From the NCBI RefSeq assembly GCF_024700885.2, contig NZ_CP117016.1: 64,000 nt of DNA; one strand, given 5' to 3'. The stretch comes from Escherichia coli. Lineage in GTDB: Bacteria > Pseudomonadota > Gammaproteobacteria > Enterobacterales > Enterobacteriaceae. The notes below the pieces were generated by a model. That model did not search any database. It saw nothing but the letters and a program-made list of their open reading frames with translations, and had not been told where the DNA came from. Made by a program: the position numbers and the translations under genes. Shown here one piece after another: positions 50,529 through 64,000 of this stretch; the stretch's first letter is position 1, and the number at the start of each line of letters is the position of its first letter.

Positions 50529-50739
50529 TTTCATATTGGCGAGGTGACGGGAGTTAAGTAGAATGGCTGCGGGTGCTTGAGGCTATCTGTCTCAGGCATG
50601 AACACCAAAGGCAGATAGAGAAAAGCCCCAGTTAACATTACGCGTCCTGCAAGACGCTTAACATTAATCTGAGGCCATATCTATGCTCTACACACGTAGG
50701 TTAGCCTCTTACGTGCCGAAAGGCAAGGAGAAGCAGGCT

Positions 50740-62541: not shown

Positions 62542-62742
62542 TCATTTCTCGTTATTTGTCATGCTGGCCGGGCGCAGATGCGTTGCATCTGTTGCCAGCC
62601 TTCTCCTGCAGGCTTCAATAACCCACGCTGAAAAGTTACCGGACCCTTTATGCTCAAGGGCGATGTTGATCTGTTCAATTATGTGATTGGGGAAACGGAT
62701 ATTGCGGGTTGTGGTTCTGCGGGTACGGTTTTTCGATGACAT
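62542..62742 (-). CDS. small ribbon-helix-helix-like DNA-binding protein (YlcI-like)
   Basis: ORF 62542..62802; Met at 62742 with AAGGAAA Shine-Dalgarno; MSSKNRTRRTTTRNIRFPNHIIEQINIALEHKGSGNFSAWVIEACRRRL. Confidence 0.5.
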   Translation of the reverse strand: MSSKNRTRRTTTRNIRFPNHIIEQINIALEHKGSGNFSAWVIEACRRRLATDATHLRPASMTNNEK

Positions 62743-62783
62743 ATTTATTTCCTTTACTGATTGCCATATGACGGGGATTTTAC

Positions 62784-63149
62784 ATGGCTGAGCTTCGTAC
62801 ACTCCAGAGCAGAATCAAAACACTGAATACCCGACGGGTGAATATTCTGAAGGGTGAACAGCGTCGTGTCAGTGGCAGTGCACGTGTTTCCCTCAAGCGT
62901 CATATCTGGCTCAGGGACGCCGGGCAGTGCCGTCTCTGTGGTCGTGTGGTTGACCTCTGTGACAGTGAACTCGATCACCGAATTGCACTTCAGTTCGGTG
63001 GTGGTAATGAGGAGACGAATCTCTGGACGCTCTGTACCGAATGCCATCGACAAAAGTCTGCTCGTGAAGCGGCGAGTGGTATGCCGGACCCGACGCTGCC
63101 GGAGGTGTCCGGAGGTAGTGGCAGAGAGGACGACATCATCGGACTGTAA
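62784..63149 (+). CDS. HNH endonuclease (terminase-associated)
   Basis: 121-aa ORF with HNH zinc-binding motif (CRLCGRVV...DHRIALQFGG...NLWTLCTECHRQK) directly upstream of the terminase. Confidence 0.8.
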   Translation: MAELRTLQSRIKTLNTRRVNILKGEQRRVSGSARVSLKRHIWLRDAGQCRLCGRVVDLCDSELDHRIALQFGGGNEETNLWTLCTECHRQKSAREAASGMPDPTLPEVSGGSGREDDIIGL

Positions 63150-63242
63150 CCCAACCCGGGGGGGGGTATCATCCGGCGTAAAAAACGATCGCTTTGGACA
63201 CCGCGCCCCCTCTCACGCAGAGAAAAAATTCCCGTTTCAGGG

Positions 63243-63366
63243 CAGTTAACATGTTAACTGGCTGCCCGGGCATTTTTGCGGTTTTTATCTTTATTATTCA
63301 GTTTGTTGTGCGGAAAAAATGTTAACAGGCTTTTTCAGCAAATGTTAACCAGGCAGCAGTTAACAT
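63243..63366. repeat. GTTAACAT repeat cluster (18-bp perfect palindrome plus three more copies), candidate cos/terminase-binding region
   Basis: cagttaacatgttaactg (63243-63260), atgttaac at 63319-63326 and 63342-63349, inverted gttaacat at 63359-63366, with an A/T-rich spacer. Confidence 0.5.
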
Positions 63367-63440
63367 TTGCGGCATGAGACGCCGGGAAAAATGGGCTGAA
63401 CCATACCCGGCTGAGTGCGTTCTGGACCCGGGAGGAGGCT

Positions 63441-64000
63441 GTGCTGACAACGCAAAAACGAAAATTTGCGCTGGCGCTCATGTCCGGGAAAAACAAAACA
63501 GCGTCAGCCATTGCCGCCGGTTATTCGGCGAAGACCGCCAGGGTTAAAGGCTCGCAGCTGGCAAAAGATCCGGAGGTGCTTGCGTTTATAGCCCGTAAAC
63601 AATGCGAGACGGTGGAGGTGGATGAGGTTCCTGTTTACCGGCAGAAAAAATCAGAGCAGGAGGATAAACCCCGTCGCCGTGAGGCGGCTGCAATACCACA
63701 GCCGGACGAAAACAATCCGGAGATGCCACCGTCCGCGGTGATGTCTCCTGGTATTGAATATATGGAGGATGGTCTTCCCGATCCGGTGAAAGCCATGGGG
63801 CGGATCCTGGTGGAAAACCTCTGCATTGATCCGAAACTGGCACTGGATGCGGCCTGGCGTCTGGCGCAGTTCACGCACCATAAAAAAGGGGATACCGGGA
63901 AAAAATCGGCAAAAGGTGATGCCGCGAAAAAAGCGGCTAACCGTTTTGCGGTGCCACCGCCACCCCGACTGGTGGTGAATAACGATAATGAGGGCAACGG
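63441..64000 (+). CDS. terminase small subunit (5' partial; runs off the window end)
   Basis: GTG at 63441 preceded by GGAGGAGG; the frame is open to position 64000 (VLTTQKRKFALALMSGKNKTASAIAAGYSAKTARVKGSQLAKDPEV...); not in the ORF track because no stop lies within the window. Confidence 0.7.
   Translation, partial: MLTTQKRKFALALMSGKNKTASAIAAGYSAKTARVKGSQLAKDPEVLAFIARKQCETVEVDEVPVYRQKKSEQEDKPRRREAAAIPQPDENNPEMPPSAVMSPGIEYMEDGLPDPVKAMGRILVENLCIDPKLALDAAWRLAQFTHHKKGDTGKKSAKGDAAKKAANRFAVPPPPRLVVNNDNEGN

Follow-up and report, generated by a model that had tools for sequence, protein, structure and literature searches.

How a small terminase subunit (TerS) recognizes viral DNA is still debated. 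In phage lambda the TerS gpNu1 acts at cosB (R3-I1-R2-R1), a set of short repeated sites that lie in both orientations between the cohesive-end (cos) cut and the TerS gene, at the end that is packaged first, and for lambda and phage 21, as for the Rpp protein of phage-inducible chromosomal islands (PICIs), site specificity co-varies with the TerS helix-turn-helix (HTH) (PMC6739421). In HK97 the order is HNH, cos, terS and terL (the large terminase gene), the TerL is of the HK97 type, the ends carry a 10-nt 3' overhang, and the cut is closely followed by the TerS site, near which an A/T tract occurs (PMC11331095). For the G1P TerS of SPP1 and SF6, contacts at several points around the TerL cut are reported, and the TerS HTH of the Pseudomonas cos phage PaP3/NV1 binds cos DNA specifically (PMC9611059). 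The locus considered here lies near the end of a 64,000-nucleotide stretch of an Escherichia coli genome (contig NZ_CP117016.1; the whole stretch is referred to as the window), in the intergenic region between the HNH endonuclease gene and terS of a lambdoid prophage, where copies of the motif GTTAACAT are clustered. Judged from sequence comparisons, this cluster is probably a cosB-like TerS recognition array that forms part of the packaging site of the prophage.

An exact-match search places five copies of GTTAACAT within 63245-63366, at 63245 (plus strand), 63251 (minus), 63319 (minus), 63342 (minus) and 63359 (plus). The HNH stop codon (63149) precedes the cluster by 96 bp, and the terS start follows it at a distance of 75-196 bp. 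Sites 1 and 2 overlap in a proximal dyad (63243-63260), the perfect 18-bp palindrome CAGTTAACATGTTAACTG. Site 3 (63319-63326, minus strand) reads ATGTTAAC on the plus strand and is a direct repeat of site 2, the two having a 16-nt direct repeat, AAxATGTTAACxGGCT, in common. Sites 4 and 5 make up a distal inverted pair (63338-63370), a perfect 12-nt inverted repeat GCAAATGTTAAC-n9-GTTAACATTTGC. The first-pass annotation had described a palindrome plus three further copies in both orientations upstream of terS, separated by an A/T-rich segment, and both parts of this description hold: the stretch that separates the palindrome from sites 3-5 (63270-63318) is T-rich, with T/A tracts at +62, +71, +79, +91 and +103 from the cut defined below. 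This spacer is T-rich in every lineage despite its diverged sequence and is probably intrinsically bent. In its middle it contains TCTTTATTATTCA (63288-63300), which is kept in 6 of 7 diverged lineages while its surroundings vary and which is not a consensus for integration host factor (IHF).

Because the 8-mer is also found seven more times in the window, in host as well as prophage coding sequences (CDS), the chance clustering of a short AT-rich word has to be considered. The whole window contains 12 copies against 2.16 +/- 1.69 expected, and none of the dinucleotide-preserving shuffles reached 12. For the cluster itself, about 0.004 copies are expected per 122 bp and five are observed. Moreover, the intergenic region is present in 1276 of 5426 complete E. 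coli genomes, with its architecture kept in these and across lineages, which makes chance clustering exceedingly improbable.

[quoted passage not shown] The record ends with ...GACACCGCCCCCCCT and begins with CTCACGCAGAG / CTCACGCAGAGAAAAAATTCCCG, its first base corresponding to window position 63212. Transferred to the window, cosN would be CGCGCCCCCT at 63202-63211, a 10-nt 3' cohesive end, with 63212 as +1 of the terS-proximal genome end. Supporting this placement independently, the linear record of the Burkholderia phage Bcep176, whose TerS is 37% identical, stops precisely 10 nt short of the homologous CTCACGC, and this terminus is the other edge of the same 10-nt stagger. The record of phage phi330 (PV189401) carries a note that mentions joined cohesive ends; it breaks inside terS, and no end position was obtained from it.

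The surroundings of the cut are conserved as well. A run of nine G residues (63158-63166, plus strand) upstream of the cut keeps the same relative position in all relatives (Enterobacterales, Burkholderia) and is, on sequence grounds, part of the cos core. This core, in the form G-run ... GACACCGC(G)CCCC(C)T CTCAYGC.CAGAAAAAAT, is kept in E. coli, Burkholderia, Janthinobacterium and a satellite element. Its part downstream of the cut (63212-63232, plus strand) reads CTCACGCAGAGAAAAAATTCC and includes an A6 tract at +12..+17; here AGAAAAAATT is invariant in an alignment of seven lineages, the element being kept from E. coli to Burkholderia and in the satellite. Counted from a cut at 63211/63212, the five sites lie at +34, +40, +108, +131 and +148 and terS starts at +230. 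All five sites therefore lie between cosN and terS, 34-155 bp inside the terS-proximal end, which is the position of a cosB; the array stands next to the cos cut, on the first-packaged side and beside terS, if the cut is where the literature on the relative puts it.

Close relatives are uninformative as to which parts of this region matter, since in 80 IMG/VR loci with 52 unique spacers the whole cos-terS spacer is nearly invariant. For this reason diverged TerS homologues were collected and their loci fetched, and eight long-spacer lineages (the window, L086, L177, L178, L176, L090, L088 and L180) were compared over the full spacer; a further locus, L175, is cut at its 5' end and shows the distal sites only. 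In five of the eight complete lineages the sites stand at +34, +40, +107/108, +130-132 and +147-148 (+158/159 with an extra copy inserted). The offsets are kept within 1-2 bp although the spacer has diverged, three lineages have one extra copy, and the offset of the proximal dyad is identical in all long-spacer lineages. Invariant columns make up 36 of 38 in the motifs versus 71 of 156 in the rest of the spacer (Fisher p=8e-9). Thus, the five copies of the motif occupy fixed offsets that are conserved among relatives.

The sequence of the sites, in turn, is not the same in all lineages. In L088/L089, L180 and L175, GTTAACAT is replaced in every copy by [AG]TAAACAT (ATAAACAT or GTAAACAT), with offsets and orientations unchanged, and site 3, which has no inverted partner, is switched along with the others. 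This RTAAACAT variant occurs in 11 complete E. coli genomes. The switch is accompanied by three substitutions in the TerS HTH, A25E, T32S and V35C: residues 25/32/35 are A/T-T-V in the 85 loci with GTTAACAT and E-S-C in the 3 loci with RTAAACAT, with zero exceptions. The same rule is obeyed by L090 and L180, and the TerS P0033 (locus L175), picked beforehand from its KSARC helix to test the rule, matched it. The N-terminal domain of TerS is predicted by AlphaFold2 with a per-residue confidence (pLDDT) of 93-96 to consist of helices at residues 4-14, 19-25, 33-41 and 44-56, in which residue 25 closes helix 2 and helix 3 has residue 32 as its N-cap and residue 35 in third position (pLDDT >93). 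The site sequence therefore co-varies with the DNA-binding domain of the cognate TerS. The proposal of the first-pass annotation that this is a cos/cosB-type terminase recognition region is supported by this co-variation together with the position of the sites inside the genome end known from Lys8385Vzw, both of which point to its function. The link that it drew to the adjacent HNH gene of cos phages is likewise supported.

The mosaic structure of these genomes is revealing of which gene the motif follows. The HNH and DUF3950 proteins of L180 are each 98% identical to those of the window and its cosN is identical, yet it carries RTAAACAT with E-S-C; its TerL residues 1-118 are 100% identical to those of L086, a GTTAACAT phage, and the motif types differ. 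The TerL of L175 is 99% identical to that of L090, another GTTAACAT phage, and L175 nevertheless has GTAAACAT with E-S-C. In reciprocal fashion, the HNH of L178 is just 64% identical to that of the window and GTTAACAT is retained. The C-terminal two-thirds of TerS do not track the motif type. By these comparisons the motif type follows the TerS N-terminal domain and not HNH, DUF3950, TerL or the C-terminal part of TerS, and the array and the N-terminal domain travel as one recombination unit.

Mosaicism of this kind bears directly on the possibility that the sites bind another protein (HNH, DUF3950/YlcI-YnfO, TerL or a host factor such as IHF) and that TerS reads only the A-tract core, as in HK97. 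Such an arrangement would be in keeping with the HNH and DUF3950 genes adjoining the sites, with the match of the palindrome to the IHF core at two mismatches, and with the A-tract site of HK97 TerS (+15..+29), to which the invariant A6 tract at +12..+17 may be compared. It is difficult to reconcile, however, with a motif type that is independent of HNH and differs between phages with near-identical DUF3950 proteins and TerL N-termini, and DUF3950 is absent altogether from L088 and from short-spacer relatives that retain the dyad. A host factor would leave two motif types within one host species, E. coli, unexplained; for IHF in particular, the RTAAACAT variant is a worse match to the core, and no IHF consensus with fewer than two mismatches was found in the T-rich spacer. 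A protein other than TerS is thus unlikely to be the one that reads the sites.

The symmetry of the locus suggests a different possibility, namely that the dyads act as nucleic acid, whether as an RNA hairpin or weak terminator, or as a promoter, within the late transcript where it passes from the lysis/HNH genes to terS, in which case symmetry itself would matter. The perfect 18-bp palindrome and the 12-nt inverted repeat exist, in several lineages the proximal palindrome reaches 8-11 bp per arm with differing flanks and is followed by T runs, and a sigma-70-like match on the minus strand uses two of the motifs. Against this, no terminator-like site was found in 62700-63500, the RNA fold is not significant (z=-1.54) and no Rfam match was obtained at E<=1, so that the region has the properties of neither an intrinsic terminator nor a structured RNA. 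Site 3 holds its position and switches with the other sites despite lacking an inverted partner, and the lineage-specific flanks are common to sites 1, 2 and 3 as direct repeats (in L090, GGTGGTTAACAT three times). Because the non-palindromic site 3 shares these flanks, their compensatory look is explained without a hairpin; hairpin covariation in the palindrome flanks was accordingly rejected, longer protein sites of 10-12 bp fitting better. The dyad of short-spacer relatives (GTAAACATGTTAAC) is unable to form a stable hairpin, and the minus-strand promoter match is not conserved in the RTAAACAT lineage. A role for the dyads as nucleic acid is accordingly quite unlikely. The promoter-like sequence itself (63319-63348, minus strand) consists of TTAACA, 18 nt and TAACAT, with TG, and probably reflects a likeness of the motif to promoter hexamers.

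The wider family shows a different relationship between the dyad and terS. In most relatives the ATG of terS is at +40, inside a dyad RTWAAC-ATG-TTAAC that starts at +34; the genera with this arrangement are Enterobacter, Kluyvera, Kosakonia, Citrobacter, Pantoea, Erwinia, Serratia, Rouxiella and Buttiauxella, and Burkholderia and Janthinobacterium have the dyad GTTAATGGCTTTAAC instead. A GTWAAC dyad at about +34 is found from Enterobacterales to Burkholderia and is a universal element of the family. Its right half, ATG TTA ACx, encodes the conserved Met-Leu-Thr N-terminus of TerS, and its left half is non-coding and falls between the ribosome-binding site (RBS) and the ATG. A terS start inside the dyad is the prevailing form among L093, L097-L112 and L182, and its counterpart in the window is 63251-63258. 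Where terS is shifted downstream (window, +230; Pantoea L105, +76; Morganella L109, +65), its first codons are ATG/GTG CTG ACA, and GTTAAC-type copies distinct from the start are still found near +34; in the window lineage about 190 bp lie between the dyad and the actual start, which has drifted to GTG CTG ACA. The left half-site of the relatives tends to follow residue 32, Thr occurring with GTTAAC/ATTAAC and Ser mostly with RTAAAC, a trend only, as the lineages are non-independent.

The overlap of recognition element and translation start in the relatives, with their separation in the window lineage, suggests a duplication followed by a division of roles or, possibly, TerS autoregulation in the short-spacer phages. 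Another possibility is that the copies are inert relics of a duplicated terS 5' end (ATG TTA ACx), left behind when terS moved about 190 bp downstream. That most relatives start terS at +40 with ATGTTAAC in the dyad, that the window lineage has its true start at +230 with ATGTTAAC copies upstream, and that 16 nt are common to sites 2 and 3 would all be expected of such a history. Relics would decay, however, and the motif columns are almost all invariant compared with 46% of the surrounding spacer; the offsets are fixed, all copies switched together with the TerS HTH, and the short open reading frame (ORF) that opens with the dyad ATG lacks conservation (25, 24 and 14 aa). That the copies are inert is very unlikely, and a duplication origin is plausibly compatible with their present function as binding sites. 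The short ORF in question runs from the dyad ATG to a TAA within site 3 (63251-63328) and encodes 25 aa, MLTGCPGIFAVFIFIIQFVVRKKC, rich in Phe; it was rejected as a gene, its counterparts having 24 aa (ending KC) in L090 and 14 aa in L088, and is probably a by-product of the T-rich spacer.

A tentative evolutionary reading of these distributions, possible rather than probable, is that the GTWAAC dyad at +34 was the ancestral TerS element of the HNH-dependent cos/Terminase_2 family (Enterobacterales-Burkholderiales), in most members of which it shares 14 bp with the terS start, and that it was uncoupled and expanded to a five/six-site array in the E. coli lineage of phages encoding Shiga toxin (Stx), with the code T32/V35-GTTAAC, S32/C35-GTAAAC. 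If true, an SF6-type TerS HTH would for the first time have a natural code of sequence-specific recognition, and the packaging specificity of Stx phages and their satellites could be engineered through it.

Arrays of the same or related short motifs also stand beside cos in other genera, with three copies in Pantoea, four in Morganella and seven G[CA]AACAT in Janthinobacterium. In Janthinobacterium sp. [quoted passage not shown] Members of the family therefore differ in where their accessory sites stand with respect to cosN. A related case is an element found in two E. coli contigs (L091/L092, AATOBA010000003.1 and JBLTNK010000003.1, about 1870-2010) that carries a primase (D5_N/AAA_25), small ORFs, its own Terminase_2 TerS (46% identical) and a capsid-like gene, and that looks like a PICI-like satellite. 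It has the same cosN core (GACACCGCCCCCCGT CTCATTCGTAGAAAA), followed by two direct GTTACAC repeats at +33 and no GTTAACAT dyad. The satellite seems to share the cut site of its helper and to use a private TerS and recognition site.

Several points weigh against interpreting the cluster as a TerS recognition array. The position of the cut rests on one PhageTerm analysis of a relative, and the publication concerned (PMC7946995) prints cos as '50,977-50,953' for a genome of 50,953 bp, the GenBank record MT225100 being labelled circular. Because the printed coordinates are inconsistent, the cos of Lys8385Vzw is usable only through the actual first and last bases of the record. The RTAAACAT lineages may stem from one or two recombination events, so that they would represent few independent data points. 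In the relatives ATGTTAAC is identical to the first codons of terS (Met-Leu-Thr), so that coding accounts for some of the conservation of their proximal dyad. Finally, the one TerS-cos complex with a solved structure, that of HK97, has TerS on a single A-tract-containing site at +15..+29 (PMC11331095), and TerS could likewise contact the invariant A-tract at +12..+17 here, either in place of the motif sites or in addition to them. Being invariant, however, the A6 tract is unable to encode lineage specificity.

If the cluster is the TerS recognition array that it appears to be, a TerS oligomer would bind sites of about 10-12 bp (nnnGTTAACAT) through its N-terminal HTH domains, engaging the proximal dyad at +34/+40 and the three distal sites at +108, +131 and +148. 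The proximal and distal groups would be brought together across the T-tract-rich and probably bent spacer, and the resulting nucleoprotein complex would position TerL and HNH on the conserved cosN core about 32 bp upstream. A staggered cut by TerL/HNH would leave the 10-nt 3' overhang, and packaging would then proceed rightwards, terS end first. In this scheme TerS as the binder, the bending or wrapping of DNA and the positioning of the nucleases are all three inferred; the anatomy, fixed offsets, conservation and co-variation of motif and TerS HTH come from the present analysis, and the cut position and polarity from the literature on the near-identical phage.

The genes around the array agree with a packaging module of this kind. 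Positions 1-37950 of the window are E. coli chromosome (narL to ompW), and a lambdoid prophage integrated next to ompW extends from about 38000. Its local order is lysis genes, DUF3950/YlcI-YnfO (minus strand), HNH, the 291-bp intergenic region, terS, terL, a protease-capsid fusion and portal. The HNH endonuclease gene (62784-63149, plus strand) is a 121-aa ORF that matches phrog_589 (E=4e-44), is annotated as HNH endonuclease by RefSeq and, by its family and place, is the packaging accessory nuclease of HNH-dependent cos phages. The terS gene (63441-64000, plus strand) has a GTG start preceded by the RBS GGAGGAGG (63431-63438) and continues past the end of the window. Its product matches Pfam PF03592 (Terminase_2) over residues 2-57 (E=2e-8) and phrog_641 (E=2e-68), in agreement with the RefSeq annotation, and gives weak phmmer matches to the PDB (E=0.2-0.8). 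In Foldseek searches with the N-terminal domain the two best matches were structures of the SF6 G1P DNA-binding domain, 4ZC3 (target-length-normalised TM-score, TMt, 0.84; root-mean-square deviation 1.6 A) and 2CMP (TMt 0.82). With an N-terminal four-helix HTH domain that matches PF03592 and has the SF6 G1P fold, this TerS belongs to the Terminase_2 (SF6/SPP1 G1P-type) class. The TerL of relatives with the same module has PF03354 and PF20441, and terL is annotated downstream in the window prophage. An HNH gene upstream of cos and terS, an HK97-type TerL and 10-nt 3' ends, the last known from the relative, place the module among the HK97-type HNH-dependent cos systems.

The DUF3950/YlcI-YnfO gene (62542-62742, minus strand; phrog_949, function unknown) adjoins HNH and cos on the opposite strand; the N-terminus of its product looks ribbon-helix-helix-like in sequence, and the gene does not track the motif type.

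Outside the cluster, the seven further copies of GTTAACAT compare with 2-3.5 expected under Markov models of orders 1-6. Four are in host genes and three inside prophage CDS (42748, Rha; 47325, a replication HTH protein; 50631, a HAD hydrolase), with a similar density in host and prophage. The three prophage copies were considered as functional relatives of the array and rejected, as all are in CDS and near background frequency, and the dispersed copies look incidental. The first-pass annotation had treated 42748 and 50631 as related copies, a suggestion that finds no support for single or short copies within CDS at such a frequency, and had placed the latter beside a hairpin upstream of hok. 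The copy at 50631 is in fact inside the CDS of the HAD-family hydrolase, about 850 bp upstream of hokD, and flanks no hok regulatory hairpin. The sequence at 50629-50668, AGTTAACATTA-cGCGTC-ctgcaa-GACGC-TTAACATTA, forms a 5-bp hairpin flanked by a direct repeat of TTAACATTA; evidence that this repeat and hairpin are related to the cos array was not found.

About one in four complete E. coli genomes has the module, and the intergenic region also occurs in 94 phage records, mostly of Stx1/Stx2-converting phages such as BP-4795, 2851 and 1717. If the interpretation as a TerS recognition array is true, it would explain packaging specificity, and hence transduction and satellite exclusion, among the co-resident lambdoid prophages of enterohaemorrhagic E. 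coli, and a large prophage family whose annotations seldom include cos would gain precise positions for cosN and cosB. A sharply defined array and a natural variant that differs at three HTH residues also make the specificity of this TerS class directly testable. The type of element, repeated TerS sites beside cos, is known, and it appears not to have been previously described for this phage family; no prior description of the palindrome, or of a cosB in HNH-type phages, was found in a literature search that lay outside most subscription journals. The array is not surprising in principle, yet it is widespread and cleanly defined.

Each of the described systems resembles the locus in part. PaP3/NV1 has in common with it a TerS HTH and a cos site, but it is a weaker structural match to the TerS N-terminal domain (Foldseek ranks 6-7), its cos sequence and architecture are different, and there is no evidence in it of a multi-copy array or of HNH dependence. 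SPP1/SF6 G1P has the same TerS DNA-binding fold (PF03592; 4ZC3). The pacL and pacR regions of that system reportedly contain short repeated boxes and bent DNA. SPP1 and SF6 package by the headful mechanism from pac with imprecise cuts, however, and here the cos is defined, the relative having defined cohesive ends and the cosN core being conserved, which sets the module apart from headful packaging. G1P binding to DNA in vitro is weak and largely non-specific (PMC9611059), in contrast to the sharply defined motif that co-varies with the HTH here.

HK97 agrees with the locus in gene order, type of TerL, overhang and the placement of a TerS site just downstream of the cut. It differs in having one 15-bp site and a terS start at +50, compared with five sites over 120 bp and a 229-bp leader here, and its TerS reads DNA threading through the ring. 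HK97 gp1 has no Terminase_2 match, and the left end and cos of HK97 are not homologous to the cos of the window; the locus is therefore not of the type that combines a gp1-type TerS with a single 15-bp site. Compared with lambda, the TerS is of the Terminase_2/SF6 G1P type and not Nu1, and the overhang, as known from the relative, is 10 nt and 3' with an HNH partner versus 12 nt and 5'. The spacer has no IHF consensus, the proximal dyad is perfect and the sites have no similarity to R sites, so that this is not a lambda cosB proper with Nu1 R sites and an IHF I1 site. In its organization, however, the array is like lambda cosB: short repeated sites in both orientations lie between the cut and the TerS gene at the first-packaged end, a bendable segment stands between the proximal and distal sites, and the specificity of the sites co-varies with the TerS HTH.

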